Source of the DNA: Alphaproteobacteria bacterium
GTDB lineage: Bacteria; Pseudomonadota; Alphaproteobacteria; Micavibrionales; UBA2020
Reading direction: 5' to 3'
Length of the DNA stretch: 64,000 nt
Assembly: GCA_965279315.1 (NCBI GenBank)
Contig: OZ257145.1
Coordinates: 73,759-137,758 of the forward strand
The first letter of the stretch is position 1. Each line of letters begins with the position of its first letter. Shown in pieces: positions 1,491-46,997 of this stretch. The notes beneath the pieces are model-generated. The model was not told where the DNA came from, ran no database searches, and saw only the letters and a program-made list of their open reading frames with translations. The translations under genes and the position numbers were made by a program.

Positions 1491-3437
1491 ATGAGCGATT
1501 CATCCATCCCGCCCAAACCGCCCGCGGCCAACGTGCTGAACGCCGCGACGCCGCCTGCGAAGCCACAAGGCACGCAGCGCCTGCTGGATGAGGCCGCGCC
1601 CGTCAAGCAAGCCCCCGCCGATATTGCCAAAGACCGTATGCCCGTAAAGCTGGAGGGCCGCGTGGTGTCGCAGAACCGCGAGACCGGCGAAACCCGCATC
1701 GCAACCGCACGCGGCGAAATTGTCGTGAACAGCGACAAACCAATCCCGAAAGACGCAACCGTGATGATCGAGCTCACGCGCGGCAAGGCTATCGGCCTGA
1801 TGGCGCAGATCGCCTTGCTGCGCGAAAAGGCGCAGGCGGCGGACACGCCCGATTTGCCGCCGCCCGCGCATGTAAAAGCGCCGCCCGCACCGCCGCCCGC
1901 ACCGCCATTGAAACCGGGCGATGTCGTGACCGCGCTTGTCATGCGCGACGAGGCCGTCACCCCGCCGCCGCCCGCGCCGGAAACCACTATTCCGTTGCAG
2001 CGCGCGGCACAGGTGCTGGAGCAGCTGACGCTGCAAATGCTGCGCGACCTGCCGAAGCCCCTGCCCGTGCCGAACGACGTCATCCTCCAGCTGGCCGCTA
2101 CACCCGACAAACTGGCGGCATTGCAAAAACTGCCGCCCGAGCAGCAACAGGCGATTATCAATTACCTTGCGAAGCCGGAAGTCGCCGCGAAACTGTCGCA
2201 GATGATACAACTGCCGCCCGCGCCGCTGCCGCTGCAGCCACAAACGCAGAATCCACCATCCGGCACGCCCGCACCGCCCGAGGCTGCGCCCGCAACTGAC
2301 ATGCCGCCCCTGCCCGTTCCGGCAGGAAAAGGCACGGGAAATGCGCCGCCGCCCGCCGGCGTCGGCGCGTTGAAGGGCTTGCTGCCGCTGATCGAAAGTC
2401 TGCAAAATGCCAATCCCGGCGCGGGCGGCATGATGCCGCGCATGGCGGGCGGGCAGAAAACGGATATGCCGCAGGGGTTGCAGGGATTGATCCCGAGCAT
2501 GAGCCAGTTGCGCATCGTCAGCATAACACCTCAAGGCGAAACGCCGCCCGTGCCGCAGCAGGGACAGGTATTGGGCGAGGTTGAATTCGTCACGACCAAC
2601 GGGCAGCCGTCGATCCGCGCAGGCGGGCAGAGTTTCCTGCTGCGTATGCCCGCATCGCTGCCCATCGGCACGCAAGTGGTCTTTGAACCAACGCCCATGA
2701 CGCCGCAACAGGTGATGACCAGCTTCCAGCTGGATGCCCTGCGGCAGGCAGCCGCGCCGTCAGGATTCACGCCGCTCTGGAGCACCACCTGGCCCGCGTT
2801 GCAGGAAACCATGGATGCCTTGGGCATGCTGGGCGGTATGCCAAATGCGCAGGCGATACAGGACAGCATCCCGTCGCCCACGCCGCGCCTTGCGCCGACC
2901 GCATTGTTTTTCCTCGCGGCACTACGCAGCGGCGCGGTCGAAAGCTGGCTGGGCGAAGGCACGCTGCAATCGTTGCGGCAGGCAGGAAAATCATCGCTCG
3001 CCGACCGGTTGACCGGCGATTTCGGCAGGATTTCGGCGCAGTCGAAAGAACCGCTTTCCGGCGAATGGCGCGCGATTTCCATGCCGATGATGCATGACGG
3101 CGAAATCGGCCAGATGCAATTCTATATCCGCCGCCAGCAGCAGGATGACACGCCCGAGAAGGAAGATGATATGCGCGCGGCACCGCCGACACGCTTTATC
3201 CTGAACCTGCATCTGTCGCGCATGGGCGATATGCAGCTGGACGGATTGCTGCGCAAGAAAACATTCGACCTGATTTTGCGCAGCGCCGACGCCCTGCCGG
3301 AATCCATGCGCCGCGAATTGATGGGCAGCTTCGCCAAGGGCCTGAAACAGGCCGAAATGGAAGGCGGCATCAGCTTCCAGACCCGCGCGCAGAAATGGGT
3401 GACGATTGATACGCCGATGCAGGGCACGAACGCTTAA
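1491..3437 (+). CDS. Proline-rich flagellar hook-length-control-like protein (FliK-like)
   Basis: 648 aa with a Pro/Ala/Gln-rich centre (PPAPPPAPPLKP, PPPPAPE). The C-terminal ~110 aa (RFILNLHLSRMGDMQLDGLL..FDLILRSADALPESMRRELMGSFAKGL) fit the beta-rich FliK C-terminal pattern. Flagellar gene context. Not verified by HMM. Confidence 0.45.
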   Translation: MSDSSIPPKPPAANVLNAATPPAKPQGTQRLLDEAAPVKQAPADIAKDRMPVKLEGRVVSQNRETGETRIATARGEIVVNSDKPIPKDATVMIELTRGKAIGLMAQIALLREKAQAADTPDLPPPAHVKAPPAPPPAPPLKPGDVVTALVMRDEAVTPPPPAPETTIPLQRAAQVLEQLTLQMLRDLPKPLPVPNDVILQLAATPDKLAALQKLPPEQQQAIINYLAKPEVAAKLSQMIQLPPAPLPLQPQTQNPPSGTPAPPEAAPATDMPPLPVPAGKGTGNAPPPAGVGALKGLLPLIESLQNANPGAGGMMPRMAGGQKTDMPQGLQGLIPSMSQLRIVSITPQGETPPVPQQGQVLGEVEFVTTNGQPSIRAGGQSFLLRMPASLPIGTQVVFEPTPMTPQQVMTSFQLDALRQAAAPSGFTPLWSTTWPALQETMDALGMLGGMPNAQAIQDSIPSPTPRLAPTALFFLAALRSGAVESWLGEGTLQSLRQAGKSSLADRLTGDFGRISAQSKEPLSGEWRAISMPMMHDGEIGQMQFYIRRQQQDDTPEKEDDMRAAPPTRFILNLHLSRMGDMQLDGLLRKKTFDLILRSADALPESMRRELMGSFAKGLKQAEMEGGISFQTRAQKWVTIDTPMQGTNA

Positions 3438-6206: not shown

Positions 6207-6233
6207 CGGCTGCATTCGTGCAGCCGTTTTTTT
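6207..6233 (+). terminator. Rho-independent terminator of ctrA
   Basis: Stem CGGCTGCA, loop ttcg, stem TGCAGCCG, followed by TTTTTTT. It sits about 30 nt after the ctrA stop. Confidence 0.7.
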
Positions 6234-6237
6234 GTTT

Positions 6238-6332
6238 GGCGCATGTTTGCGCCGTTTTTTGTTTGGTGCATGTTTGCGCCGTTTTTTGTTTGGTGCATGT
6301 CTGCGCCGTTTTTTATTGGCGCATGTCTGCGC
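6238..6332 (+). repeat. 27-bp tandem repeat (about 3.5 units); each unit is a small hairpin plus T-tract
   Basis: Units GG(C/T)GCATGT(T/C)TGCGCCGTTTTTT(G/A)TT(T/G) start at 6238, 6265 and 6292, with a partial unit from 6319. The arms GGCGCA/TGCGCC pair. The array produces the artefactual ORF text LRRFLFGACLRRFLFGAC. Confidence 0.85.
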
Positions 6333-6333
6333 T

Positions 6334-7152
6334 TTAAGTTGCGTCGCTGCGCATATACCCGCCCATCACGCCATCCAGCAGTTTCAGCCCGGCAGCCTCC
6401 GCCGGCGGGGTTTCCGCTGCGCCCAGCATCAGCACGCCATCCCGCCGCAAATTGGCGCGGATGTCGGACAGCACGGCAAGGCGCGTGGCGGCGTCGAAAT
6501 AGATCAGCACATTGCGGCACAGGATCAGGTCGAACTGCCCCAGATGCCCGACGCCGTCCAGCAGGTTCATCTGCCGGAATTTCACCACATCGCGGATATG
6601 CGGTTTCAGCACCCATTCTTCGTCGCAGCGGCTGAAATGGCGCAGCAGCGTTGCAGCGGGCACGCCGCGCTGCGCCTCGAACGCGCTGTAACTTGCGGCC
6701 TTGGCCTTTTCCAGCACCTGATGCGAAATGTCGGTCGCGATGATGTCGTATTTCCATCCCGCATGGGCAACGCCCATATCGTGCAGCAGCATGGCGATGG
6801 AATACGCCTCCTGCCCGCTCGCGCAGCCCGCCGACCAGATGCGCAGGGTTTTGTCCACGCGGTTGCGCATCAGCGCGGGCAGCGCCTTTTCCTGCAACTG
6901 GCGGAACGGCAGCATGTCGCGGAAAAAAGATGTCTCGTGCGTCGACATCGCCTCCACCACATCGCGCAGTATTTGCGGCGATCCCATGCGGATTTCGCGC
7001 GCGACGCCGGCAAGGTCGTCGACGCCATAGCGGTCGGCCACGGGCATCAGCCGCGATTTCAGCAAATATTCCTGCCCCGGCGCCAGCACAAGGCCGGATT
7101 CACGCCGCAGCACATCGACGAACAGCAGCAGGTCTTGCGGGTGCAAATTCAT
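6334..7152 (-). CDS. cheR: Chemotaxis protein methyltransferase CheR
   Basis: CheR-type SAM methyltransferase (IWSAGCASGQEAYS, LLCRNVLIYFD). Last gene of the che operon; overlaps cheB by 4 nt. Confidence 0.9.
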   Translation of the reverse strand: MNLHPQDLLLFVDVLRRESGLVLAPGQEYLLKSRLMPVADRYGVDDLAGVAREIRMGSPQILRDVVEAMSTHETSFFRDMLPFRQLQEKALPALMRNRVDKTLRIWSAGCASGQEAYSIAMLLHDMGVAHAGWKYDIIATDISHQVLEKAKAASYSAFEAQRGVPAATLLRHFSRCDEEWVLKPHIRDVVKFRQMNLLDGVGHLGQFDLILCRNVLIYFDAATRLAVLSDIRANLRRDGVLMLGAAETPPAEAAGLKLLDGVMGGYMRSDAT

Positions 7153-8231
7153 GCCGGCACCTTCAAGCGCCGCAGCAGCGCGGCGGCCATCTCATCCAGC
7201 GGCACGGTTTGCGCGCTCAGCCCCGCCTGCACGACAGCGCCCGGCATGCCCCAGACGACGCTGGATGCCTCGTCCTGCGTCACAACTGTGCCGCCCGCAT
7301 CAACGACAGCGCGGCAGCCTGCAACGGTATCCGTGCCCATGCCTGTCAGCACCGCCACCAGCAATTTTGCGCCATATGATTTCGCCAGGCTGCGCAGCAT
7401 CGGGTCGGCGGCGGGGCGGCAAAAATGTTCGGGCAATTCCTGGTTGAGCGATATGCGGCGAACCCCGTCAGACCCATCGACCGTCAGATGGTAATTGCCG
7501 GGCGCGACATACACGCGGCCCGCCACGACCGCTTCGCCATCCACGGCCTCGCGGCAATCCAGCCCCGTCGTCTGCGTGATATTTTCCGCCAGCAGCGCGG
7601 TGAAACCCGCGGGCATATGCTGCGTGATGAAAACCGGCACGCTGGGCGGCGGCAACCCGCCCAGCACCTTCAGCAATGCCAGCGGCCCGCCGGTCGAGGC
7701 GCAGATGGCAAGCGCGGCGGGCGCATCCGGCGGCGCATCACGCTCTACAACCCTTGGTGGTGGAGGCGGCGAAAAAAAAGGCGCGGCTTCTGCGGGTTTG
7801 GCGCGCAGGCGTCCCAGCACTTTCACGCGCTGTATCAGCTCGTCGCGGAACGGCCCGGGGTCGGACAGGTCATGCACATTGGGTTTGCCAAGGCAGTCGA
7901 CCGCGCCCAGCGCAAGGCATTTGAGCGCCAGCGCCGCGTTTTCGCGCGTCTTGGTGGATGCGACAATGATGGGCAGCTTCGGGTTTGCCGCCAGCAATAA
8001 AGGCAGCGCGGTGATGCCGTCCATCACCGGCATTTCAAGGTCGAGGATCACGACATCCGGCGCTGCCTCGGCCAGTTCCTGCAACGCCGCCTGCCCGTTC
8101 GGCACCGCCGCCGTCACCTTGATCGCAGGATCGGTTTCGAGGAAGCGGGTCAAAAATCCGCGCACGATGCTGGAATCATCGACCACCATCACGCGCACGA
8201 TACCGGAAATGTTTTTTCCCGACTTCGGCAT
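7149..8231 (-). CDS. cheB: Chemotaxis response regulator protein-glutamate methylesterase CheB
   Basis: N-terminal receiver domain (VMVVDDS) followed by a methylesterase domain (ICASTGGP, MPAGFT, GMGTD). Confidence 0.9.
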   Translation of the reverse strand: MPKSGKNISGIVRVMVVDDSSIVRGFLTRFLETDPAIKVTAAVPNGQAALQELAEAAPDVVILDLEMPVMDGITALPLLLAANPKLPIIVASTKTRENAALALKCLALGAVDCLGKPNVHDLSDPGPFRDELIQRVKVLGRLRAKPAEAAPFFSPPPPPRVVERDAPPDAPAALAICASTGGPLALLKVLGGLPPPSVPVFITQHMPAGFTALLAENITQTTGLDCREAVDGEAVVAGRVYVAPGNYHLTVDGSDGVRRISLNQELPEHFCRPAADPMLRSLAKSYGAKLLVAVLTGMGTDTVAGCRAVVDAGGTVVTQDEASSVVWGMPGAVVQAGLSAQTVPLDEMAAALLRRLKVPA

Positions 8232-17719: not shown

Positions 17720-17766
17720 AATCCCCTCTCCCGCGCTTGCGGGAGAGGGTTAGGGTGAGGGTGCGT
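17720..17766. repeat. REP-like palindromic element (CCCCTCTCCCGC..GCGGGAGAGGG..GGGTGAGGG), left copy
   Basis: Hairpin CCTCTCCCGC-gctt-GCGGGAGAGG plus a GGGTGAGGG tail. An inverted homologous copy lies at 18400-18445. Confidence 0.8.
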
Positions 17767-17787
17767 GTCAGAGCGAAAGGTCTCGGG

Positions 17788-18369
17788 ATGGAAGCACCAG
17801 AAAATAGTCAGGACTTAGAAAGCTATAAAACTTTTGGGCAGTCTGAAAATACCCGTGTCGAATTTGTTCGGCTCATATCTTTTGAGAAAATGAAGCAGAA
17901 TATTGCGAAGATCGCTAAACATCTTCATCTGGAAGAAAAGCATGTTTGTTATGTTTGGGGCGGAGGAGGAAACTCAAAATCCACATATCAAGCCCTGCGT
18001 AAAAATAACGATATCTCCGTAATGTTTGCGCGGAGTTGCATGCCGGGAATTTTCAAGATATTTGGCTCGTTAATACCTAGTCATCAAGGGCTGGTGAAGA
18101 TTAACAAGGCTGACGCGCTTTGGCCTGCGGTGGAAGTAATTTTAGAGGCTGAGATGACTACAATATTTGTTTTCGATAGAAAACTTGAAGCCGGTTTTCT
18201 GGAAGCCGCAAAATCCTACGATTTTCGAAAAACTTCAGACGACAGCTTTGGTGTAAAAGAGGATCTAGGATATTTAATTTATTTCGTGGATGCAGAAAAC
18301 TGGGATGAAGGCGTTGCCGAAGTCGTTTCACTCGGCAAAGACGTGCCGCATGACTTCGTGCTGGAATAA
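17788..18369 (+). CDS. Hypothetical protein encoded in a low-GC insert
   Basis: 193-aa ORF from ATG 17788 (MEAPENSQ). AT-rich codon usage unlike its neighbours. The longer ORF start at 17737 merely translates the REP element (RVRVRVRV). Confidence 0.5.
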   Translation: MEAPENSQDLESYKTFGQSENTRVEFVRLISFEKMKQNIAKIAKHLHLEEKHVCYVWGGGGNSKSTYQALRKNNDISVMFARSCMPGIFKIFGSLIPSHQGLVKINKADALWPAVEVILEAEMTTIFVFDRKLEAGFLEAAKSYDFRKTSDDSFGVKEDLGYLIYFVDAENWDEGVAEVVSLGKDVPHDFVLE

Positions 18370-18399: not shown

Positions 18400-18445
18400 A
18401 CTCACCCTCTCCCCCCGCCCTCTCCCGCAAGGGCGGTAGAGGGGG
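18400..18445. repeat. REP-like palindromic element, right copy (inverted relative to 17720-17766)
   Basis: Its reverse complement, CCCCCTCTACCGCCCTTGCGGGAGAGGGCGGGGGGAGAGGGTGAG, aligns with the left copy. Confidence 0.8.
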
Positions 18446-19019
18446 CCAAGGCCCCGCGCCGATAAACGCACAACACCACAAATGCCGTGTTAATCACAAT
18501 CGACGACACCGGATAGACCAGCGTCGTCACCGTGAAATTCGTGAGTGCGACAAGTGACAGCCCCAGTTTCACATTCGCGATCATATAGGCGGCCAGGTTT
18601 TCTTCTGAAGGTTTCGTCCATGATTTGCGGATGGTCGGGTAAAATGCGACGCAGCTGATGATGGAGGCCAGCACGACCGACAATAACGGGTCGTCCGTCA
18701 GCACCCACGGCACGACCGCAACAAAGGCTGCAACAAGTGACAGCTTGTCGCCGCGCGTGATGTTTTTCTCGCCCCATTTCAGCGCCAGCGTGGCCTGAAA
18801 CAGGCATGCCGCCGCCGTGATGCCGAGCGCCCATGCCCCCGGCCCCGCATGGTCGGCCAATTGGCCGAGGAAGGCGATCAGCGTGACCAGCCCCCAGACC
18901 AGATGCGTGTAAAAATGCGGGCGCGTTTCGCCGCGGAAGATGGAGAGGATATAAACCGTTGTCCCCCACAACCCGATAAGGAACGCCGCCAGCCCGAAAA
19001 TTTCCTGATATGTCGCCAA
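18402..19019 (-). CDS. Integral membrane protein, function unknown
   Basis: About 6 hydrophobic helices. TTG start with GGCAGGG upstream. The last ~12 codons run into the REP element, so the true C-terminus is uncertain. Confidence 0.5.
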   Translation of the reverse strand: MATYQEIFGLAAFLIGLWGTTVYILSIFRGETRPHFYTHLVWGLVTLIAFLGQLADHAGPGAWALGITAAACLFQATLALKWGEKNITRGDKLSLVAAFVAVVPWVLTDDPLLSVVLASIISCVAFYPTIRKSWTKPSEENLAAYMIANVKLGLSLVALTNFTVTTLVYPVSSIVINTAFVVLCVYRRGALAPSTALAGEGGGRG

Positions 19020-19122
19020 AACCCTGCCCCTTTGCCCTGCCTGCCAGCATAGGGCGGCGGGGCGGGGCTGTCACGGGCGGCGCGTTAAAATACGCATGAC
19101 TTGTTCAAAGTTATGACAATAA

Positions 19123-19151
19123 TTGACACCGATTTCGCCTTGTCATAGTAA
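19123..19151 (+). promoter_or_regulatory. Putative promoter of the ank1-ank2 pair
   Basis: TTGACA, 17 nt, TAGTAA, about 55 nt upstream of the ATG at 19205. Confidence 0.35.
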
Positions 19152-19204
19152 CCCCTATTTTCTATAGTTCCCCCTGTTCCCAGATTCAACCGGACAGGAC
19201 AGCG

Positions 19205-20317
19205 ATGCCGCTGATGCACACCAACAAAGGTTTCCTGAAGGCCGCCGAGCGCGGCGATATGGATGTGCTGAAAAGCTATCTGGCCGGCAAGCACGCCCCC
19301 GAATTCCTGAAGATCACCGACCGCAACGGGAACACCGCGCTGCACCTTGCCGTGAAATCGGGCAAGATCGACGCCATCGACGCGCTGCTGGCGGCGGGGG
19401 CGGATATCGAGGAACGCGGGCGCGTCAATTACACGCCGCTCGGCACCGCCGTCTATGCCAGCCGCACGGATTCATTGCGCCACCTGCTGGCAAAGGGCGC
19501 AGACCCGAATGCCGACATGCAGGGCGGATCCACCGCGCTGGGCATTGCGGTTGCGCGCAACAGCCCCACCGCCGTCACCTTTTTGCTGGAGGCGAAAGCC
19601 GACCCGAATTTGGGCAACCCGCTGATGATGGCCGCGCAATACGACCGCACCGCGATCGTGAAGATGCTGATCGCGGCGGGCGCGAATATCGATGTGCATG
19701 ACGACCAGAAACGCAACCCACTGCATTACGCCGCCATCAACACCTCGCAGGAACTCGCGACGCTGCTGCTGGAAAAGGGCGCGGATATCAACCAGCGCGA
19801 CAAATCGAACGGCTTCAGCCCGCTGCAATGGGCGATCCATTACGGGCGGCACCAGATGGTGGAATTCTTCCTGGAAAAAGGCGCCGATGCCGAGGTCAAG
19901 AACAATAACGGCCAGACCGCGCTGCAGGCCGCGCGCGCCGGCCGCAACGAGGCGATCATCGGCATCATGGAATCGCGCCAGAAACCCCTGCGCCCCGGTT
20001 ACGACCTGCCCGACACGGCGGAGGGCGAAACCGAAACATGGCTGCGCATGGGCGCGGGAAAAATCGCGCAGGTCGGCATCTATCCCGCGCTGGAGCGTAA
20101 ATTGACCGAGATTTTCAATTTTGAATCGCGCGAGCGCATCACCATCTCCGAAAACCTGCGCACGGGCGTTGAAAACATGGCGGCACCACAGAGCTTTGAC
20201 GTTATCGAGGAAACGGTGCTGCAAAAAGCGGCCGCCGCCTATCGTAATGCGGGTGGGACGGTTGATGAGACACAGCTGACACGCCGCAGCCTGAACAAGA
20301 CCGCGAGGCTCCCGTAA
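19205..20317 (+). CDS. Ankyrin-repeat protein with conserved C-terminal TEIFNFESRER module (paralog A)
   Basis: About 7 ANK repeats (GNTALHLAVKSGKIDAIDALLAAGADI and others). The last ~95 aa are shared with the two following genes. Confidence 0.85.
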   Translation: MPLMHTNKGFLKAAERGDMDVLKSYLAGKHAPEFLKITDRNGNTALHLAVKSGKIDAIDALLAAGADIEERGRVNYTPLGTAVYASRTDSLRHLLAKGADPNADMQGGSTALGIAVARNSPTAVTFLLEAKADPNLGNPLMMAAQYDRTAIVKMLIAAGANIDVHDDQKRNPLHYAAINTSQELATLLLEKGADINQRDKSNGFSPLQWAIHYGRHQMVEFFLEKGADAEVKNNNGQTALQAARAGRNEAIIGIMESRQKPLRPGYDLPDTAEGETETWLRMGAGKIAQVGIYPALERKLTEIFNFESRERITISENLRTGVENMAAPQSFDVIEETVLQKAAAAYRNAGGTVDETQLTRRSLNKTARLP

Positions 20318-21273
20318 TGTTCGACAGCGCGAAAAAATTCATCCAGGCCGTGAAGGATAATGACGAGAAAACCGTCACGCGGTATGTCAAAGAATACTAT
20401 TACAACAGCCGCAAAGTGGACCTGAACGCGCGTGACGACGGCGGCATGACCGCCATTTATTACGCCGCAAAGCTCGGCCATAGCGAGATCCTCAACACCA
20501 TGCTGAAATTCGGCCTGAACGCCAATACGCCGGACAAGGAAGGCCATACGCCGCTGACGATCAGCCTGATCAACAAGCAGCGCGACGCCGCGAAGGTATT
20601 GATTGCGCGCGGCGCGGATGTGAACGCCCATGCCGCCGATTACATCACGCCGCTGCATTTCGCCGCGCATCAGGGCGATATCGAGCTGGTGAAACTGCTG
20701 GTGGGTTACGGCGCTGACCTGAACCCCGTAATCGTGAACAACGGCTATACCCCGCTGCATTGGGCGATCATCCAGGGCCATGCGAATGTGGTGGAATTCC
20801 TGATGGAGCGCGGCGCGCGCACCGATATGCCCGACAAAAAAGGCCAGACGCAGCTGGACATCGCGGCCACCAAGGGCGCGCACCTGCAAAAAATCCTCGA
20901 AACCGCCGCCGCCAAGGCCGCAGCCGCTACGATGGCGCAAGAGCCCGCCGCCCCCGTCTACAGCGGCAACGACAGATGGCTGCGTACCGGCGAACATCAG
21001 GTCACGCATATCGGCGAGATCCCCGACATCAACCGCCGCCTGACCGAGATTTTCAATTTCGAAAGCCGCGAGCGCACCGTCATCAACGAAAATACGCGCA
21101 GCGGCGTCGAAACCACTTCCGCCCCCGAAAATTTCGACAACATTGCCGAAGCGGCGCTGCGCAAGGCGCTTGCCGAATTCGTGAAGCTGGGCGGCGAAGC
21201 GGTGGAATCCGATGTCATCGGCAAGCGCAATTCCGGCGCGAATAACGGTCCGTCAAGGCCGTTCCGCGTTTAA
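20317..21273 (+). CDS. Ankyrin-repeat protein with conserved C-terminal TEIFNFESRER module (paralog B)
   Basis: ANK repeats (GMTAIYYAAKLGHSEILNTMLKFGLNAN and others). Its start overlaps the upstream stop (TAATG). Confidence 0.85.
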   Translation: MFDSAKKFIQAVKDNDEKTVTRYVKEYYYNSRKVDLNARDDGGMTAIYYAAKLGHSEILNTMLKFGLNANTPDKEGHTPLTISLINKQRDAAKVLIARGADVNAHAADYITPLHFAAHQGDIELVKLLVGYGADLNPVIVNNGYTPLHWAIIQGHANVVEFLMERGARTDMPDKKGQTQLDIAATKGAHLQKILETAAAKAAAATMAQEPAAPVYSGNDRWLRTGEHQVTHIGEIPDINRRLTEIFNFESRERTVINENTRSGVETTSAPENFDNIAEAALRKALAEFVKLGGEAVESDVIGKRNSGANNGPSRPFRV

Positions 21274-21342
21274 TTAAACCAGCAATTTAAATTTAAAAAA
21301 GCTGAAAACATTAGTGTTTTCAGCGCGGTAGCATAATACCTC

Positions 21343-21371
21343 TTGACGCTTTTCCGTGCGGTTGGGATAAT
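21343..21371 (+). promoter_or_regulatory. Putative promoter of ank paralog C
   Basis: TTGACG, 17 nt, GATAAT, about 40 nt upstream of the ATG at 21414. Confidence 0.4.
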
Positions 21372-21413
21372 TCCCCAACACCATCAACAACTGCGGGGAA
21401 CACGACTTACCAC

Positions 21414-22379
21414 ATGGCATTCATCAGCACGAAGAAGACCTTCTTTGCGGCCGCCACCAGCGGTGATCTTGATGAAATCAAATACGGTTTGCAGGAGGGC
21501 CAGCCCTACCCCGTCGACATGAAAAACCCCGAAGGCAAAACCGTGCTGATGCTGGCGGCGGAAGCGGGACAGCTGGAAGCCATCAAATACCTCCTTACCC
21601 GCAAGCCCGACCTGACGCAGACCGACCCCGAGGGCAATACCGCGCTGCTGCTCGCACTGACCAAGGATAAATCGGCGGCGGCGCTGCTGCTGATCGCGGC
21701 GGGATCGGATGTGAACGCGCATAACAGCAGCTATACCTATCCCATCCACTGGGCGGCGCATAACGGCGACCTTGATGCCGCGAGGGCTATGGTCGAAAAA
21801 GGCGCTGACCTGAATGTGCGCAATAAAAAGGACGAGCTGACACCCGCCTATTACGCCGTCGCCAGCGACCGCGGCGCAGTGCTGGAATTTCTCATCGCAT
21901 CGGGCGCGCGCACCGATATGCCGGGCAAGGACGACAAGACCCCCGCCGACCTCGCCAAGGAAAAATACCCGCGCCTGCAAAAAATCATCGAGACGACGGT
22001 GCGCGCAACGCCCGCCGTGGAAACGCCCGCTGTTGCTGCCGTTCCCGCCGCCGCCCCGCCCGCAAATGAAAACAAACCCGCCAGCGCATCCGAAACATGG
22101 GCGCTGATGAACGCCACCACCATCGCCAAAATCGCCGAAATGCCTGTGCTGAGCCGCAAGATCACGGAGATTTTCAATTTCGAATCCCGCGAACGCCTGA
22201 TTATTTCCGAGAACCTGAAGACGGGTGTGGAGACGCTGGGCGTGGCCGAGAGTTTCACGACGCTCGCCGATGCCATCCTTTCCCGCGCGACGGATGAGTT
22301 GAAAAAAGCAGGTGGCAAGCCGCCCGTGCTGGACGACAAGCCCGCGAGTGCGGGGCCGATTGCGCGGTTGAAAATCTAG
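21414..22379 (+). CDS. Ankyrin-repeat protein with conserved C-terminal TEIFNFESRER module (paralog C)
   Basis: ANK repeats (GKTVLMLAAEAGQLEAIKYLLTRKPDL and others) and the same C-terminal module. Confidence 0.85.
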   Translation: MAFISTKKTFFAAATSGDLDEIKYGLQEGQPYPVDMKNPEGKTVLMLAAEAGQLEAIKYLLTRKPDLTQTDPEGNTALLLALTKDKSAAALLLIAAGSDVNAHNSSYTYPIHWAAHNGDLDAARAMVEKGADLNVRNKKDELTPAYYAVASDRGAVLEFLIASGARTDMPGKDDKTPADLAKEKYPRLQKIIETTVRATPAVETPAVAAVPAAAPPANENKPASASETWALMNATTIAKIAEMPVLSRKITEIFNFESRERLIISENLKTGVETLGVAESFTTLADAILSRATDELKKAGGKPPVLDDKPASAGPIARLKI

Positions 22380-22380
22380 T

Positions 22381-22493
22381 GTCACCCCGGCGAAGGCCGG
22401 GGTCCACGGACTGACGCTGTGTCGCATAACAGGTGACGGACGGTTACAGGACACGCGATGCCGTCCGTGGATTCCGGCCTTCGCCGGAATGAC
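22381..22493. repeat. MITE-like element bounded by inverted GTCA(C/T)(C/T)CCGGCGAAGGCCGG(G/A)(G/A)T hairpin units
   Basis: GTCACCCCGGCGAAGGCCGGGGTCCACGGAC at the left end pairs with GTCCGTGGATTCCGGCCTTCGCCGGAATGAC at the right end. Confidence 0.75.
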
Positions 22494-22508
22494 ATTTTTT
22501 TGTTGAAT

Positions 22509-22601
22509 GTCATGCCAGCGAAGGCTGGGATCTCGCAGGTCGAAGACCTGCCTTTATAAAACCGCGCGGGCGCGGGAGATGCCAGCCTTCGCTGGCATGA
22601 C
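22509..22601. repeat. MITE-like element, same family as 54723-54815
   Basis: Ends GTCATGCCAGCGAAGGCTGGGATCTC and GAGATGCCAGCCTTCGCTGGCATGAC, with a central CTTTATAAAA. Confidence 0.75.
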
Positions 22602-32847: not shown

Positions 32848-35800
32848 CTAGGTCTGGTAGCCGCGCTTGCCGGTGAGGCCTTTTTCCCATGGCAGGCGTT
32901 TGTATTTGGAGTTTTCCTGTTCCTTGAACTTGGCGGCCAGGAAGTCGTCCTGCTTGTCGGGGCTCATCTTGTTGTAGGCCACCTTGTCCTTGGCGTTCAG
33001 CCCGTCGATCGTGTTGCTCTTGTCGATCGCGGCCTGCTTGCGCTCGTCGGCCGTCATCACCTTGTCCTTGGCGTTCGACTTCATGTTGTCGGCGCGGCTT
33101 GCCAGCTGCGTGCGTTCGGCAGCCAGCGCATCCGCATCCTTGATCGGCACGTCGCCCTTCGGCTGCATCTGGCCGATGACGCGGGTTGCCGCGTACATGT
33201 TGCCGTCATGACCCTGGCCGAGCGAAGCGGAGACGCTGCGATCCGGCGAGCCGCCCATCCAGCGGATCAGGTTTTCCGGGAAGATGTCGAGCAGCTTGAA
33301 CGACGTGTTCGCCGCCGTGTACAGCGTGCCCAGGTAAATGACCGAATAACAGACCTTGGCAACCAGCGCCATGAAGTAGTTGTTCGACGAGATGACCGAG
33401 GACGCGCCTTGCGAGAAGGTCGTGTGGAAGAAGACCGCGAAGGTGTTGTAGATCAGCATGCCGGCGACAAAGCCCATCACCGTCAGCACGGGGCGCATCA
33501 GCACGTTCAGCCACATGATCCACGCCGTGCGCAGCTGCGGCTGCCCCGCCGTCAGGCCGTCACCGGTCGAGACCAGGTGCGCCAGCGCTGCGACCGGCAC
33601 CATCACCACCGCCTCGAACACCGACACCATCCAGGTCAGGACCGAGAAGGCGACGCGCAGGAACGGCAGCACGGGCAGGTAGAAGGAAATCATCAGGCCC
33701 GACACGATCATCGCGGTGCCGATGGTGGCGAATGCGTTGAGCAGCGACGAAACGGCCACACCGATGCCGAGCGAGAAGCCGAAGCCTTTCAGCGTCGAGA
33801 CAGCCTGGACCAGCGTCACGCCGCCCCACAGCAGGGCGCCCGTGCCCAGCACGCTATGGCCCGTATTGGCCAGCTGCGCGAGGGGGTAAGTGCCGGTCGC
33901 GGCCAGGTCGACCGCGCGGAAGATGAACGCGCCGCCATAGCTGGGCACGAAGAAGCGCGCGAGCGTCGCCGCGATGTTGTTGTCGCCGCCCGAGAGGTTC
34001 TTGAATGCCGACATCAGGTTTTTCAGGGATCCGCTGGAGCCCGTGTTGATGTCGCGGCCGCCGGTTGCCGCCGTGTTCAGGTTGCGGCCGGTGGTGCCGG
34101 GCGCCGTGGAGTTCGCCCACCATTTGTCGTAGCCGTCGAGCGCGCCGAGGACTTTTTCCTCGAGGCCCGAGATGCGGCACGAACGGCCGATGATTTTCGA
34201 CCCGATGCAGCGCAGCCAGCCCGAGCCGCCGGCGCCGATCCAGACGGAGCCCGGTTCAACGGTCGCGGTCGGCTGTTGCGCGCCTGCCATCAGGCTGTTC
34301 ATGTTGGTGATGTCCTGGTACCACATGCCCATGCCGGCCCAGCCGCGCGCATTCATCTGCGCTACCATCGGGCCGCCGATATAGGTCGTCAGCGCGGTTT
34401 TGCCGGGGCCTTCATAGGCGGTCATGATGTCGGTCTGCAGTTGGTTCGACATCGCCTGCTGTTCATCCATCGTGGGGTCGGTCGCGGCGGCGGCCGTCGT
34501 CGCCGCATCGCATTGCGGGATCGCGCCGACAGGGCTGGTGCCCGTGCCGCCGTCGGGGAATTTGCGCGCGACATAACGGCAGGCGAAGCGGCGGGCCATT
34601 TCAATGACCGTGCCGCCGGAACCCATCGCACTGGTCGCGCTGTCCTGCATCGCAGGCTCCAGCGCGCCGCGCATCGCGTTACGGAACGCGCGGGCGGCGA
34701 TCGTGAAGTTGGGGGCGGCGTTGTAATCCGTGCCGCTGACGATCGGGGTCGAGGTCGACATCGGGGTCGAGGGCACCATCGCCGACCATGCCAGGAACTT
34801 GTCCATGTCATCGGTCGTGGAGGCGGTCGAATAACTGATCGTGCCGCAGACGTTGGAGCCGGTGTTGTTGGTGTAGCGGTTCGTGATCGTGCCGAGGTTC
34901 GGCGTCACGTCCTGCACGCGGCGGATCACCTGGTCGGGCGGCAGGCCGCCTTGCGTCTGCTGCAGGTAGGTGTTGAACGCCACCTGGCAGACCATCACCT
35001 TGCCGATGCTGTTGACGAGCGAGGTCGCGTTATTGACGGCGAAGGGCGCCAGCAGGGACTGGTCGCCCACAACGCCCGCCACATATTGCGACCAGGCGCG
35101 CGTACCGAAGTTCGAGCCCCATTCGGCCAGTTTCATCACGGCATACTGGCCGGAGGAGAAGCCGGAGCCGAGGGGGAACAGCAGGCCGAGCGCGAACATC
35201 ACGCGGATCGGCGCCCAGACCATGTTATGGCGGCCGCCGCCGAACACGCCGGTTTTCGCGGTGTCGATGATGATGGAAACGATCATCCACAGCATCATGA
35301 CGCAGGCAATCGTGATGACGCCGGTGTTATACGCGCCCATCATGCCGGCAAGGGCGTTCTGCAGCGCGCCGCCGTTCGGCGTATCGGCTGCCGCCTGGCG
35401 CAGGATCTTGTCCAGCACCATCAGGCCGTAATCGGTCGAGATGTTGTTGTTCGCGACGCGACCGTCGAACAGGCCGCCCGCGCCCGTGATGGCGCCCACG
35501 TTGCCCATGTCGGTCTTGCCGGCGCCCGCGCCATAGGGGTTGCCCGGGTGGGTGAAGAACAGCTGCGCCTGCGCGACTTCGCCGACGCCCAGGAAGATGC
35601 GGGCGAAGAACGTGCCGAGCGTCGCGGTCAGCGTGACGATCATCATGACGACGACGGTGAACATGCCGTACTGGTACATGCCGGTGCGGCGCGTGGTGCG
35701 CAGGCGGAACCAGACATCGCCCATCATCTTGGTGAACTTGATATTGGGCACGCCTTCCGCGCCGTAGTTGACCGCGGGGTGGTCGTTCGGCAGCAGGGAT

Positions 35801-36144
35801 GCCTGCACCAGCACCTGCGCCATGATGCGCATGAACACAGGGTAAATATGGGAGAAGCCGCGGAAGCACAGGCTGAACTGCGGCAGGAACATGAACGCGG
35901 CAATGGCCGAGCCCTTGATGCGGAACGGCTTGCGTTTGCCTTCCGCGATCTCGCGCTTTTCAAGCGCGCGTTTTTCGGCATAGGGGCTGGCGGCTTTCTG
36001 GACGTCTGTCAGGCCGCGGCGGGCTGTCACGCGCTCGCCGGTTGCGAATCTCTCGACGGCGGCATCGGCCTTTTTGTCCTTGCGTAGCTCCGCGAGTGCG
36101 CGAAGACCGTCCGCAATTAAACCCTTATGCTTGGAATCGCTCAT
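32848..36144 (-). CDS. Giant polytopic membrane protein, paralog 1 of 4 (tentatively DotA/TraY-like or VirB6/TrbL-like; family unverified)
   Basis: 1098 aa from ATG 36144 (MSDSKHK). It shares these blocks with the other three: F(M/V)FLPQFxxCFxGFSH(I/L)YPxFMR, STDY(A/G)LMVLDKILRQ, GGGRHNMVW(A/T/V)PIRV(M/V/L)FALG, GQY(A/M)VMKLAEWGSN(F/L)G, (V/I)MVCQ, TNRYTNNT, RGWAGMGMWYQ, TNTYPLA, FYLP(V/A)LPF(L/I)RVAFxVLTW and LYTAANTSFKL. The CDS is certain; the function is not. Confidence 0.85.
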   Translation of the reverse strand: MSDSKHKGLIADGLRALAELRKDKKADAAVERFATGERVTARRGLTDVQKAASPYAEKRALEKREIAEGKRKPFRIKGSAIAAFMFLPQFSLCFRGFSHIYPVFMRIMAQVLVQASLLPNDHPAVNYGAEGVPNIKFTKMMGDVWFRLRTTRRTGMYQYGMFTVVVMMIVTLTATLGTFFARIFLGVGEVAQAQLFFTHPGNPYGAGAGKTDMGNVGAITGAGGLFDGRVANNNISTDYGLMVLDKILRQAAADTPNGGALQNALAGMMGAYNTGVITIACVMMLWMIVSIIIDTAKTGVFGGGRHNMVWAPIRVMFALGLLFPLGSGFSSGQYAVMKLAEWGSNFGTRAWSQYVAGVVGDQSLLAPFAVNNATSLVNSIGKVMVCQVAFNTYLQQTQGGLPPDQVIRRVQDVTPNLGTITNRYTNNTGSNVCGTISYSTASTTDDMDKFLAWSAMVPSTPMSTSTPIVSGTDYNAAPNFTIAARAFRNAMRGALEPAMQDSATSAMGSGGTVIEMARRFACRYVARKFPDGGTGTSPVGAIPQCDAATTAAAATDPTMDEQQAMSNQLQTDIMTAYEGPGKTALTTYIGGPMVAQMNARGWAGMGMWYQDITNMNSLMAGAQQPTATVEPGSVWIGAGGSGWLRCIGSKIIGRSCRISGLEEKVLGALDGYDKWWANSTAPGTTGRNLNTAATGGRDINTGSSGSLKNLMSAFKNLSGGDNNIAATLARFFVPSYGGAFIFRAVDLAATGTYPLAQLANTGHSVLGTGALLWGGVTLVQAVSTLKGFGFSLGIGVAVSSLLNAFATIGTAMIVSGLMISFYLPVLPFLRVAFSVLTWMVSVFEAVVMVPVAALAHLVSTGDGLTAGQPQLRTAWIMWLNVLMRPVLTVMGFVAGMLIYNTFAVFFHTTFSQGASSVISSNNYFMALVAKVCYSVIYLGTLYTAANTSFKLLDIFPENLIRWMGGSPDRSVSASLGQGHDGNMYAATRVIGQMQPKGDVPIKDADALAAERTQLASRADNMKSNAKDKVMTADERKQAAIDKSNTIDGLNAKDKVAYNKMSPDKQDDFLAAKFKEQENSKYKRLPWEKGLTGKRGYQT

Positions 36145-36194
36145 GGTTTTGCCCTGCAAATAAAGACCGGAACCTATAACAGGCTTATTCTTAA

Positions 36195-36385: not shown

Positions 36386-39300
36386 TCAGATCTTGAACAG
36401 CTTGCCGGCCAGCGCTTCGTTTGCCTTGATCAGGTCGTTCAGCTTGCTTTCGCTTGCCGTGCCCTTGGCAACCAGCCCGCGCAGCACGCTTTCGGCGTAT
36501 TTCGCGTCCGAGAACTGCTCGCGCTTGGCGATATCGGCGTTTTTCCAGGCCGTGCGCTGTTCGGACGACATTTCGTTTTCAGCCGCACGGTCGCGCGATT
36601 CCACCAGCTTGCCATGCGCCAGCGCGACGGCCGCTTTTTCATCGCGGGTCATGAAGCCCCATTGCGTGTTGACGTCGGAGCCGGCGTTTTTCTCTTCCCA
36701 CATCGCTTGCGCGTAGCCGATCGTTTTCTTCGGCTCGCGGCTGGCTTCGTCCATCGCCGCGCCGTCAAGGCCCAGCTTGCTCAGCAGGTTCAGCTCGTCC
36801 TGCGCCTTCATATAGCCGAACATCGCCTCCGTGCCCGGTTTGCCCACGCCCGGCGCGAACAGTTCGGGATCTGTTTCGTAATAGCGGCGGATAAAGCTGT
36901 CCTTGTCCGCAGCCGACATACCGACATAGTTCACGGCATCGGCGCCCGACATCTGGTTTTCGATCTTCTGGCGCACGGCTGCGATCTGGGTTGCATTCAT
37001 CGCATCCATGCCGGAGCCGCCGCCGCCCGAAAGTGCGCCGTCAAGCGCGCTGTCCGAGATGCTTGCGCCGGCCAGCTGGCCGCGGCCCACCGACGGGCCA
37101 TCCAGTTCGCGGAAGTTCTGGTCGTTGTCCTTGTGTCCGCGCTGGCCGTGACCGGCCAGTTTTTCACCGAAATGGTAGCCGGAACCGCCCATATCCTTGC
37201 CGCCCTCGTTGCGGGAGAACCAGCGGCGCGGGTTCATGCTGGCATGCATATTCAGGCCGGCAAAGGTCGTGCCTGCGCCGCTGTAACCCGCCTTGCCAGT
37301 CGTGTTCAGGCTATAGCCGATGCCGCGCTCGAAGCCGAAGCGTTTGTATTTCTTGTTCTCCTGCTCCAGGAACTTGTGCTGCAGGAAGCGGTCCTTGTCG
37401 CCGGACGACATGTTGCCCATGCGGTCGCGTTCGTCCGCGGTCATGCGGGAACGGGCCAGCTGCATGTCCGACTGCTTGCGCGCAAGCTTGCTGTCGGTCA
37501 GCAGCTCGTCGCGGACGCCCATGGCCGCCGCACGCGACGCCACGCTGTTCGCGTTCTTGAGGTTGGTCAGGTCGTCGTCGGACTTGATCAGGTTGCGCAC
37601 GTTCCAGCCCGAAGACATCGGGATCGCCTGTTCCAGGTTCTTGATCAGTGTCGCACCGGCGAAGCCGAGGCCGCCGCCGATGTTGGAACGGCCGTCCAGC
37701 AGCGCGGTGTCCTGTTTCGCGCCCCATTCGCCGAGCCAGCGCATCAGGTGGTTGGGGAACACGTCCAGAAGCTTGAACGAGGTGTTCGCCGCCGCATACA
37801 GCGTGCCGAGATAAATGACCGAATACGCGACCTTGGCAAGGATCTGCATCGGGTACCAATGCGTCGACATCACCGATGCCGCGCCCTGTTCGAACGTCGT
37901 GTGGAAAAACACGGCGAAGGTCGAATAGCACAGCATGCCGGCAATGAAGCCGAACACGGTCAGGATCGGGCGCATGAAGACGTTGAACCACAGCGTCCAG
38001 GCCGTCCGCCCGTGGTTACCCATCAGGCCGGGCCCCATGGTGGAGAGGTGGGTCAGCGCCGCAACCGGCACCATCACGACCGCCTCGAACACCGAGGTCA
38101 GCCAGGTGAGAACGGAGAACGCGACGCGGATGAAGGGCAGCGCGGGCAGGTAGAAGGAAATCACGCAACCCGCCAGGATCATCATCGAGCCGACGGAGGC
38201 AAGCGCGCCCATCAGCGCGGAGAAGGCAAGGCCTTTACCGAGCGAGAAACCCGCGCCGTCAATCGTCGACACGGCCTGCAGGATCGAGACACCCGTCCAC
38301 AGCAGCGCGCCGATGCCCAGCACGCTATGGCCGGTATCCGACAATTGCGCCAGCGGATAGGTGTTGGTCGCGGACAGGTCGACCGCCTTGAACAGGAACA
38401 CGCCGGCAGCACGCGGGAAGATAAAGCGCGTCAGCACGGTCAGGATGCCGTTGTCGCCGATCGACACGTTGCCGATCCATGACAGGATCGAGCCGATGGA
38501 AGAGCCGACCGCAGGGTTCAGTTCCTGGTTGGAGGACGCGGCCGCCTGGCCGACCTTGCCGGGCGATCCCGAAAGGCCCGATACGCCCCACCAACGGTCA
38601 TATTCGTTCATGACCGAGAACACTTTGTCCTCGAGGCCGGAGATTTTGCACTGCTCGCCGGATTCGCTGGAGTCACCCGCGCAACGCTCCCAGCCCGCAC
38701 CGCCCGAGCCTGACCAAATCGAGCCGGGCTCGACCGTCGCCATGGGTTCCTGCGCCGTGTACTGCACGTTGTTCAGGTTCGCGATGTCCTGGTACCACAT
38801 GGCCATGCCGGCCCAGCCGCGGCTCGACATTTCGGTCATCATCGGGCTGGTCGCCGTGGTGCCGACGTAGTTGTTGAGCGCGCCGCGCCCGCCGCCCGTA
38901 TAGGCGGCCATCATCGCGGCCTGCATCGTGTTCAGCATGTTCTGGTGCGACGACGTGTCGGGGTCGGTCGCGGCGGCCGCTGCGCCTGCGCACATCGGGA
39001 TATCGGCCACGGGGTTGCCCGCACCGCCGCCGTCGCTGAAACGGCGGGAAACGAACTGGCACGCGAAAGTGCGCGCATCGTTCACGACAGAACCCGCGCC
39101 GACGCCGGTCGGGGTGTCGGCGAGGTCGGCGGAAAGCGCCCCGCGCATCGCGTCGCGGAAGCCCTTCACGGCGGTCGTCATGCCGACGTTTTTATAGTTG
39201 TTGTCGGGCGCGGTGCCGGTCGAGGTCGAGGCGGTCATCGCCGTGTTCGGCGTCGCCGTGCTCCAGTCGAGGAACTGGTTGTTGTCGTCCGGCGTCGCGG

Positions 39301-40549: not shown

Positions 40550-40602
40550 GCGTGATGCCCCGAGAAAATAGTTCCACACACCTAAATCAGGCTTATTCCT
40601 TC

Positions 40603-43672: not shown

Positions 43673-43726
43673 GGTTAAAACCCCGACAAAAACAGACACA
43701 CACACCTAAATCAGGCTTATTCTTTC

Positions 43727-46900: not shown

Positions 46901-46997
46901 GCGCAAACCCCGTAAAACACATGCGGAACTGCGGCATGAACAGAAACCTCGCGATGGAAGTTTTCTGACCAGAGTTGTAATCATCGGCATGGCTCAT
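43911..46997 (-). CDS. Giant polytopic membrane protein, paralog 4 of 4, with a long Gly-rich tail
   Basis: 1028 aa from ATG 46997 (MSHADDY). Same conserved blocks. C-terminus GGGGGAPGAPGGKGGGGLGMGAGSGGQSGKGGAGGKA. Confidence 0.85.
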   Translation of the reverse strand: MSHADDYNSGQKTSIARFLFMPQFRMCFTGFAHLFPVFMRCLAQVFAEAKLIPSSHNALNYGAKEIPNTHIFDLFGTAWFTLRVTRSSAHQWSMFTGVVLMIMMMVLAVGSFFLRVVFGVGNAVQAQLFLPRVLEHPCNPYGGCSGGPGETAITGGTSTITAPGGLFDTRVNDASVSTDYALMVFDKILRQAATAPVGNGGVLQNALVDLMRVYNTGMTLIAGVVTLWMIMSIVVSTARTGKLGGGRHNMVWAPIRMVFALGIIFPLGAQGFSSGQYMVMKLAEWGSNLGTKGWVQYIAGVVGDQSLLAPFSVHNATSIAAGVNKVMVCQIAFNSALQNITGGLDAQQVIRVKQDTTNRVGWVANRYTNNTDANICGTITYGFDNGVNSDVGAAMANTGVSSPMDPASAALAANAANRTMYTNYDQEFADRLADFRQRMMGALQPLLTENMDIAADTGSGTGGGTVVTLARQLACPFVARRWETTTPNPVGLLSAPYAACPGGTVAPAADPDASIPQRQVGMMMDAIRCTYDGSAPISPTSPGCGGGPFAKDALMAYITGPNGMIKEMQRRGWAGMGMWYQKIAALNAQVAGAREPTATVEPGTLWEGATKGGFWSNLKCAGRRIVGRPCKSPEIEEKAASILGEYDAWWASASRPGAPANTPLGTMGGAQRTQDVTPSSSGGGLRTVISFIKSVAFGGGSGILNWVAERIWPRASDSFIFSAVDTAATNTYPLATLTDAGHRIIYTSLSILSGLTIIQILTAGKLFTVSGGIGFAASAVANVLSTISTTMLVAGVMIAFYLPVLPFLRVAFAVLTWMTSVFEAVLMVPIAALTHLGTEGEGLAGGARTAWILWLNVLMRPVLVVFGFVGGMLIFNAFATYFHTTFSQGASTLIATHNIFTAMIAQVTYSIIYLGTLYTAANTSFKLMDVIPNALMRWMGGSPDHSMDDHSDGNMLTAAKMMEGMAPKFQYGGKKAGDPDATPGGTKAADVGGGGGAPGAPGGKGGGGLGMGAGSGGQSGKGGAGGKA

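Follow-up and report, generated by a model that had tools for sequence, protein, structure and literature searches.

Large expansions of ankyrin-repeat (ANK) proteins without signal peptides are otherwise typical of the effector-injecting bacteria Legionella, Coxiella, Orientia, and Wolbachia. The combination of ANK arms with a constant C-terminal box is likewise of a known kind, found in effector families with shared signals and in ANK-PRANC or ANK-SOCS adaptors. Here, we examined three tandem ANK genes (A, B, and C) in a 64,000-nucleotide stretch of contig OZ257145.1 (assembly GCA_965279315.1), hereafter the window, from an alphaproteobacterium of the order Micavibrionales. These genes belong to an old family of paralogs that is confined to Micavibrio-like predatory Alphaproteobacteria. 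What is new is the C-terminal domain itself, its fold, its restriction to these predators, and its copy number, and the domain is probably a shared handle for docking or export. The molecular means by which epibiotic predators such as Micavibrio manipulate and drain prey are obscure, and the structural and regulatory bases of the epibiotic predator junction are still unknown (PMC12428579). With at least 13 copies in one genome, diversified arms, and a constant handle, this lineage-specific family is a concrete candidate set of predation factors, and the handle offers a bait for finding the partner machine.

Several described systems resemble this locus in part. The Bartonella effector proteins (Beps) are also alphaproteobacterial and form a multi-copy tandem family, in which a conserved C-terminal domain of ~100 residues is followed by a short positive tail. 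However, their BID domain is all-helical, whereas the domain described here is a beta-meander with one helix and matches BID in neither sequence nor fold. The N-termini of Beps are varied (FIC, tandem BID) but here are always ANK, and no VirB/D4 genes were seen in the window. In the effectors of the bacteria-killing Xanthomonas type IV secretion system (T4SS), called X-Tfes, a conserved folded C-terminal domain of ~100–120 residues (XVIPCD) marks a family delivered into rival bacteria, and such delivery would suit a bacterial predator. X-Tfes have diverse toxin domains and adjacent immunity genes, whereas the family described here has ANK arms only, no linked immunity-like gene, no sequence match to X-Tfes, and no significant fold match in the PDB.

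Diversified ANK arms, one short constant C-terminal docking domain, and expanded paralogs are also features of the ANK-PRANC/F-box proteins of poxviruses, Orientia, and Wolbachia and of the eukaryotic ASB (ANK-SOCS box) proteins. In eukaryotic cells, F-box, PRANC, and SOCS boxes serve as small helical binding domains for Skp1 or Elongin B/C, whereas the module here is beta-rich, has no such Pfam match in any member, and is found in a predator of bacteria. The Dot/Icm Ank effectors of Legionella and Coxiella (AnkB, AnkH, AnkX, AnkY) similarly have ANK repeats, no signal peptide, many members per genome, and a DotA-family gene in the same genome. These share no folded C-terminal domain and use a short polar or acidic signal (PMC3096851), in contrast to the folded domain and basic tail here, and no Dot/Icm cluster was found in the window. 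Bdellovibrio provides a case of a bacterial predator in which an ANK protein has a dedicated role: Bd3460 is reportedly a short immunity protein made of ANK repeats only, which acts against DD-endopeptidases of the predator itself (PMC4686830). The family described here differs from Bd3460 in being multi-copy, in its extra C-terminal domain, and in having no signal peptide.

A constant C-terminal domain behind variable ankyrin arms

The first-pass annotation of the window had described three open reading frames (ORFs) with different ANK regions and a common C-terminus. All three ORFs were confirmed together with their C-termini (Table 1), and Pfam identified each as an ankyrin-repeat protein, with Ank_2 scores of 154, 112, and 86 bits for A, B, and C against a cutoff of 27.3. 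The contrast between the two parts of the proteins was borne out as well, as pairwise identity was 23%–34% in the N-terminal (ANK) part and 38%–43% from the conserved W onward. In the alignment of the three, the block TEIFNFESRER is identical, and W, P, R, I.EN, GVE, F, L..A, and GG are shared as well. At the DNA level, the 33-nt cores encoding this block lie at 20105–20137, 21043–21075, and 22164–22196; the latter two positions are as annotated earlier, while that of A had been placed one base off. Any two cores share 29 of 33 bases, and all differences are synonymous (e.g., Ser as TCG, AGC, or TCC), so the conservation of the DNA reflects selection at the protein level rather than gene conversion. 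Scans with the pattern and with a hidden Markov model (HMM) of the family found no copies of the module in the window besides these three.

The common C-terminus had been taken for a single module of ~95 residues. It is indeed common to all three proteins, but it divides into a core of ~75 residues (W to GG) and a flexible tail of ~20 residues. AlphaFold2, run on the isolated module of A with an 18-sequence alignment, returned a model with a predicted local distance difference test (pLDDT) score of 90.4 and a predicted template modeling (pTM) score of 0.78. In this model, strands at residues 2–9, 12–19, 24–31 (with TEIFNF), 36–43, and 49–51 are followed by a helix at 62–74 and a low-confidence tail. 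The full-length model of B consists of an ANK solenoid of paired helices (residues 1–207), a linker (208–219) whose pLDDT ranges from below 50 (at 213–215) up to 73, the module (220–295), and the tail. The helical segment ending in ..AGG or ..LGG, which had been predicted from sequence, is present in the models. According to these predicted structures, the module is an autonomously folding, uncatalogued domain of ~75 residues, a beta-meander with one helix, carried on a flexible linker.

The module was not recognized as a named domain in the first-pass annotation, and this holds for every search that we made. Pfam gave no match to the isolated module even at E ≤ 10, matches from NCBIfam and PADLOC were confined to the ANK parts, and no PDB sequence matched the module with either a single-sequence or a profile query. 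A Foldseek search of the C-terminal region, which had been proposed as a check, found no significant neighbor in the PDB (best E = 0.056, query TM-score [TMq] ≤ 0.40) or in BFVD (best E = 0.017), and returned only generic beta-meander matches.

Distribution, conservation, and age of the family

Scanning for the pattern T[EH]IFNF, with one genome per species, gave 79 loci in 30 metagenome-assembled genomes (MAGs) labeled Micavibrio, Alphaproteobacteria, Rhodospirillaceae, or Bdellovibrionales. Since NCBI taxonomy places Micavibrio under Bdellovibrionales, these MAGs represent one lineage. The pattern occurred in 116 ORFs, located 56–80 residues ahead of the stop codon with a single exception at 112, and the family HMM added ~36 copies with variant motifs (TDVFNF, TEVFNF, TETFNF), for a total of 152 genes. 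An exhaustive HMM search of 1.84 billion representatives yielded 792 clusters (at 50% identity) with E ≤ 1e-3, 453 of them with E ≤ 1e-10. Among the best 150 of these library matches, the module match always ended at the C-terminus, and cluster members were metagenome proteins without informative names. A second, word-indexed protein search gave three matches, and a look-up for exact copies of protein B gave none. Searches of plasmid and phage collections found no family member, none of the 79 loci came from a cultured isolate, cultured Micavibrio included, and literature searches found no mention of it; in the supplements of the paper on M. aeruginosavorus ARL-13, ankyrin and DotA terms were absent. 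Whatever its function, the module defines a well-delimited new domain family (792 clusters) that has a confident predicted fold and no structural neighbors, and it merits a database entry.

We note two points on labels. Loci L002, L024, L048, and others are titled "Bdellovibrionales bacterium," which follows the NCBI placement of Micavibrio. Both these loci and L015, L063, and L070 (DASPMW, "Patescibacteria group bacterium") have the same syntenic alphaproteobacterial genes and the ANK-module family, at odds with their titles, and DASPMW looks like a mis-binned or mislabeled MAG.

Family genes were co-directional within each locus and were present singly at 32 loci, in pairs at 28, in threes at 14, in fours at four, and as six at one, so that 47 of the 79 loci have two or more copies. 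Tandem genes were often tightly spaced, with gaps of ≤20 nt in 23 of 37 gene pairs. The longest arrays included the six consecutive genes of L017 (1116–7247) and the four each of L037, L056, and L060, in which several copies have the variant motifs TEVFNF, TDIFNF, TETFNF, and TELFNF.

The architecture of the family is fixed. It consists of an ANK arm of 2 to about 9 repeats, a disordered Pro/Ala-rich linker, the constant domain of ~75 residues, and a flexible tail of ~20 residues. ANK families matched 110 of the 116 genome copies and 131 of the 144 library representatives, with no other recurrent domain. The exceptions were fragments or belonged to a subfamily of ~270 residues with degenerate ANK-like helical repeats, and such repeats account for all six genome members that lack an ANK match. 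The expectation of a modular unit joined to varied N-terminal domains was therefore not borne out, as the module is always C-terminal and always follows ANK or ANK-like repeats. A portable module with other fusion partners was rejected on the same 116 + 144 members. Apparent stand-alone module proteins were also rejected, since these are fragments on short contigs (V starts, ANK remnants) and all full-length relatives have ANK repeats.

Conservation is concentrated in the C-terminal module. Across 6,670 family pairs, mean identity was 41.5% in the module core and 26.4% in the ANK part, and 98.6% of the pairs had higher conservation in the module than in the ANK part. The fully invariant columns, eight in all (W, T, E, I, F, N, F, N), fall without exception in the module, and in the wider family the near-invariant positions are only F-N-F, the Trp, and the second Asn. 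The family signature, W-(21 residues)-T-x-[IVLTM]-F-N-F...N...E...F...A...GG at 56–80 residues before the stop codon and after ANK repeats, is present in A, B, and C, whose matches to the family HMM (Table 1) go well past what chance would give.

The first-pass annotation had allowed that the module might be found in this one tandem cluster only, which would indicate simple recent duplication. Instead, the family is old and, within one lineage, widely distributed. Separate orthologs of A, B, and C are found, in A-B-C order, in four other genomes (L001–L004). Orthologs of A (L001–L003) are 60%–69% identical in the ANK part and 79%–86% in the module, and those of C are 83%–90% and 86%–88% identical, respectively. 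Recent duplication or gene conversion was rejected given these orthologs in conserved order and the synonymous differences among the DNA cores, which include TCG versus AGC.

Candidate partners of the C-terminal domain

Neither a signal peptide nor a membrane anchor was found in the family, with a hydrophobic N-terminus in just one of the 116 genome members and a convincing transmembrane segment in none. By sequence, the proteins would be cytoplasmic unless another export route serves them. We propose that the variable ANK arm is the putative target-binding part, which would supply specificity, and that the constant C-terminal unit would be a common handle bringing many ANK arms to one shared partner. 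That partner could be an apparatus with which the predator exports or translocates proteins independently of Sec, in which case the family would be a repertoire of delivered ANK effectors. We assign a probability of roughly 0.35 to this identity of the partner. Export is favored because the proteins appear cytoplasmic, because the expansion of the family is, by analogy, like that in effector-injecting bacteria, because the common feature lies at the C-terminus, the site of type I secretion system (T1SS) and T4SS signals, and because a channel protein of the T4B type is conserved in the lineage and amplified in the window.

The tails were examined in this context. They had been described as net-positive, which was correct for A, B, and C (+4, +4, and +3) and for the family, whose last 12 residues have a mean charge of +2.3 and a charge above zero in 114 of 116 members, next to a mildly acidic folded core (mean −1.75). 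The tail motif is GG-x-A-[DP]-[ED]-x-x-[VIL] followed by a basic stretch, and tails often finish with L-x-K-[PK] or [KR]-x-[FL]-x-[LIVP]. The composition at positions −4 to −11 is 20%–39% K/R and at most 10% acidic, 42% of members have a hydrophobic residue at position −3, and acidic residues are weakly enriched (15%–24% D/E) in a patch at about −14 to −25. The basic tail, the hydrophobic −3, and the acidic patch are candidate signal features, of a kind that Sec-independent export signals use. Type I secretion substrates carry RTX/GG repeats, and their signals are uncleaved, C-terminal, and poor in Lys and Pro. Features of RTX-type T1SS substrates were not found, as no HemolysinCabind or RTX Pfam match occurred in the 116 + 144 members and the tail is Lys/Pro-rich.

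A conserved C-terminal unit of ~100 residues with a positively charged tail, ANK cargo, and a DotA/TraY-like array in the window could also be read as a classical T4SS signal, either a BID-like bipartite signal whose positive tail would engage a VirB/D4 coupling protein or a C-terminal signal of the canonical Dot/Icm kind. We consider this quite unlikely. Of the resemblance to a BID domain plus basic tail that the first-pass annotation had drawn, the net-positive end stands but the fold does not, since BID is helical and the module is beta-rich, with no Pfam match at E ≤ 10 and no PDB fold match at E < 1e-3. The Dot/Icm Ank equivalogs of NCBIfam (AnkY, AnkH, AnkG, AnkX, and others) matched ANK parts only and stayed far below their cutoffs, at ≤94 bits against 450–1400 (best match AnkY, 94 bits against 600). 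The window and the surroundings of the DotA-like genes in relatives showed no VirB, VirD4, or further Dot/Icm genes, and the last 12 residues are basic, whereas the Dot/Icm signal is acidic or polar.

For the export reading, the sole apparatus-like clue to the partner is a lineage-wide DotA/TraY-like membrane protein with four tandem copies in the window (Table 1). The four (1103, 1397, 977, and 1028 aa) are 45%–60% identical to one another, have no Pfam match, and are distantly homologous to Legionella DotA (PDB 9ngy, E = 6e-15). They lie next to an opp transporter operon rather than in a Dot/Icm cluster. In T4B systems, DotA and IcmX together make up the central translocation channel (PMC12857230). 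Homologs named "DotA/TraY family protein [Micavibrio sp.]" apparently share contigs with ANK-module loci L003, L007, L009, L010, L012, and L036, and these apparently shared contigs, in at least six MAGs, indicate that the two families co-occur in the lineage. A more specific version, in which the ANK-module proteins would be cargo of a cryptic, T4B-derived trans-envelope conduit around the DotA-like protein, injecting into prey or another host cell, with the TxIFNF domain and Lys/Pro tail as a new class of folded translocation signal, seems unlikely to us. If true, it would mean that epibiotic Micavibrio-like predators inject proteins into prey or another host cell.

Several observations weigh against export as the role of the handle. 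We know of no precedent for ANK targets inside bacterial prey. No linked chaperone, immunity, or toxin gene was found at the loci, and stable housekeeping synteny, a near-consensus sigma-70-type promoter, and absence from plasmid and phage collections are unlike typical horizontally acquired effector islands. The tight coupling of tandem paralogs suits the formation of hetero-oligomers at least equally well. In five relatives, the DotA-like gene is single, with identity down to 34%, and occupies a conserved slot (EAL / HAD, DotA-like, SBP_bac_5, two permeases, ABC ATPase), where it directly precedes the opp operon in the same orientation; within 10 kb of it there are no further dot/icm genes or other T4SS genes. 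In the window, no other dot/icm, VirB, or VirD4 genes were seen and a complete secretion system was not found. The genome of M. aeruginosavorus ARL-13 was reported to contain complete T1SS and type II secretion system genes with no evidence of type III secretion systems or T4SSs (PMC3189940), which also counts against a classical T4SS signal, although no cultured Micavibrio is among the 79 loci. Finally, in Dot/Icm C-terminal signals the last 20–30 residues are polar or acidic (E-block) and include a hydrophobic one close to the terminus (PMC3096851); the basic family tail agrees with this in part only, through the hydrophobic −3 and the weak acidic patch.

The DotA array is accordingly weakened as proof of a T4B secretion system, as across the lineage (relatives L080–L087) DotA-like genes always lie directly upstream of the opp operon and never with other dot/icm genes. 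A complete T4B system is unproven, and the role of the DotA-like gene may be a different one. The association of DotA-like and opp genes raises a separate question, the role of a T4B channel protein beside a peptide importer in a predator.

The coupling of tandem genes bears on a second explanation, that the module is a self-association domain with PUR-like pairing, forming homo- or heterodimers with two ANK arms that would act as bivalent cytoplasmic scaffolds, with the tail as an accessory. Tandem genes are usually translationally coupled (the one-base overlap of A and B; short gaps in 23 of 37 pairs), and most loci hold at least two co-directional copies (47/79), though the gene is single in 32 of 79. 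The model of the module is also relevant, since conserved hydrophobic residues alternate on the central strands and point to both faces (V/I14, A15, and V/I17; I30 versus F31 and F33) while the one helix covers one face only, which we count in favor of self-association. Four to five antiparallel strands followed by a helix is the topology of PUR repeats and Whirly-like beta-beta-beta-beta-alpha units, in which two units may pair, and Pur-alpha was among the weak Foldseek matches (3k44_B, 8chu_B). However, those matches were insignificant (E 0.6–0.7, TMq 0.26–0.27), there is no sequence similarity to PUR repeats, and dimerization alone accounts neither for the polar residues that are strictly invariant (T, N, N, E/D) nor for the conservation of the tail. 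We regard self-association as improbable on balance, though as the strongest of the alternatives to export.

Alternatively, the module and tail could form a cytoplasmic adaptor or localization handle that tethers ANK clients to an internal machine, such as an AAA+ protease, a polar hub, or the feeding junction. This follows the same logic of variable arm and constant handle as ANK-SOCS-box and ANK-PRANC/F-box adaptors, or the SspB linker with its C-terminal ClpX-binding peptide, and it agrees with the absence of a signal peptide. Housekeeping synteny, the conserved sigma-70-like promoter, and one-to-one orthologs with conserved ANK arms (83%–90% for C) suggest core roles of this type. Tail endings such as GPIARLKI and SPIGRLKV may resemble the basic-hydrophobic ClpX-binding tail of Escherichia coli SspB, but the likeness is confined to a short motif. 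No partner was identified, no member has a Pfam match to a SOCS box, F-box, or PRANC domain, and it is hard to see why a small-genome predator would need up to 13 adaptors; we consider this explanation rather doubtful.

The invariant polar residues allow one further explanation, in which T, E/D, N, N, and E would form a site, for example an oxygen-ligand Ca2+/Mg2+ or small-molecule pocket, making the module a ligand- or metal-binding or small enzymatic domain with a regulatory effect on the ANK arm. Over 119–155 copies with 25%–45% overall identity, T, N, and N never vary and E/D hardly varies. Against this, the domain is very small, contains no invariant catalytic-type His, Cys, Ser, or Lys, and resembled no enzyme or binding fold in Pfam, PDB profile, or Foldseek (PDB and BFVD) searches. 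It appears to be the least probable of the explanations considered, and very unlikely.

The ANK locus and its surroundings

Features of the three genes, their modules, and the DotA/TraY-like array are listed in Table 1. The overlap of the A and B reading frames is translational coupling. The promoter-like hexamers and spacer of the A-B operon are kept in seven of nine orthologous upstream regions, a phylogenetic footprint. Because this promoter is kept across species whose proteins have diverged to about 40%–70% identity, its conservation suggests strong, possibly constitutive, expression. The near-consensus sigma-70-type promoter 5' of gene A (window 19096–19168) is conserved, spacer included (TTGACATAG..N..TATTTTCTATAGT), in the orthologous loci L001–L003, L007, L010, and L011.

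Table 1. Positions of the ANK genes, their parts and signals, and the DotA/TraY-family genes in the window.
Feature	Position	Strand	Description
Promoter-like site of A-B operon	19140–19168	+	TTGTCA, 17 nt, TATAGT; 10/12 consensus positions matched
Gene A, 370 aa	19205–20317	+	ANK repeats ~residues 6–250, Pro-rich linker, C-terminal module, tail; Ank_2 E = 1.5e-45
Module core of A (W279 to G351)	20039–20257	+	Beta-meander plus helix; family HMM E = 7.5e-30
Tail of A	20258–20314	+	TVDETQLTRRSLNKTARLP; short acidic patch, then basic Lys/Arg/Pro end; pLDDT 54–73
Gene B, 318 aa	20317–21273	+	Start codon overlaps stop codon of A by one base; Ank_2 E = 1.4e-32
Module core of B (W221 to G293)	20977–21195	+	pLDDT 89–97 in full-length model; HMM E = 4.4e-29
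Tail of B	21196–21270	+	EAVESDVIGKRNSGANNGPSRPFRV; pLDDT 52–61; hydrophobic F at −3, V at −1
Perfect 10-bp hairpin between B and C	21301–21324		GCTGAAAACA-loop-TGTTTTCAGC; from terminator scan, minus strand
Promoter-like site of gene C	21343–21371	+	TTGACG, 17 nt, GATAAT, TG in front; 10/12 consensus positions matched
Gene C, 321 aa	21414–22379	+	ANK repeats, Ala/Pro-rich linker, module, tail; Ank_2 E = 2.4e-24
Module core of C (W229 to G301)	22098–22316	+	HMM E = 5.4e-28; from alignment
Tail of C	22317–22376	+	KPPVLDDKPASAGPIARLKI; from alignment; ending ..[AG][RK]LK[IV] recurs in orthologs and in P0005
Four tandem DotA/TraY-family genes	32851–36159, 36389–40579, 40775–43705, 43914–46997	−	TIGR04346 201–228 bits vs cutoff 100

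The immediate neighbors of the ANK genes are housekeeping genes, namely an FtsJ-like methyltransferase, aminopeptidase P, ribosomal protein S21, an indolepyruvate-oxidoreductase-like gene, CtrA, flagellar and chemotaxis genes, and an Opp-type ABC importer, and the block from pepP through the ANK genes to S21-ior is syntenic in about 12 genomes. When 738 neighboring ORFs were clustered across loci, no recurrent partner gene was found, just syntenic housekeeping families. A mobile-element origin was rejected on the grounds of no plasmid or phage match, no GC anomaly, and syntenic housekeeping neighbors.

Sizeable ORFs without a Pfam or NCBIfam match lie at 1491–3437 (+), 6232–7494 (+), 17737–18369 (+), 18402–19019 (−), and 60719–61648 (−). 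They include a 648-aa ORF within the flagellar/chemotaxis/CtrA region and a divergent 205-aa ORF directly 5' of gene A that is hydrophobic by eye. Just 3' of gene C, window 22380–22601 holds two copies of an element resembling repetitive extragenic palindromes or miniature inverted-repeat transposable elements (REP/MITE-like). Their inverted arms (22380–22411/22463–22494 and 22509–22534/22576–22601) are ~26–32 nt long, 88%–96% complementary, and built around the core CCGGCGAAGGCCGG / CCAGCGAAGGCTGG.

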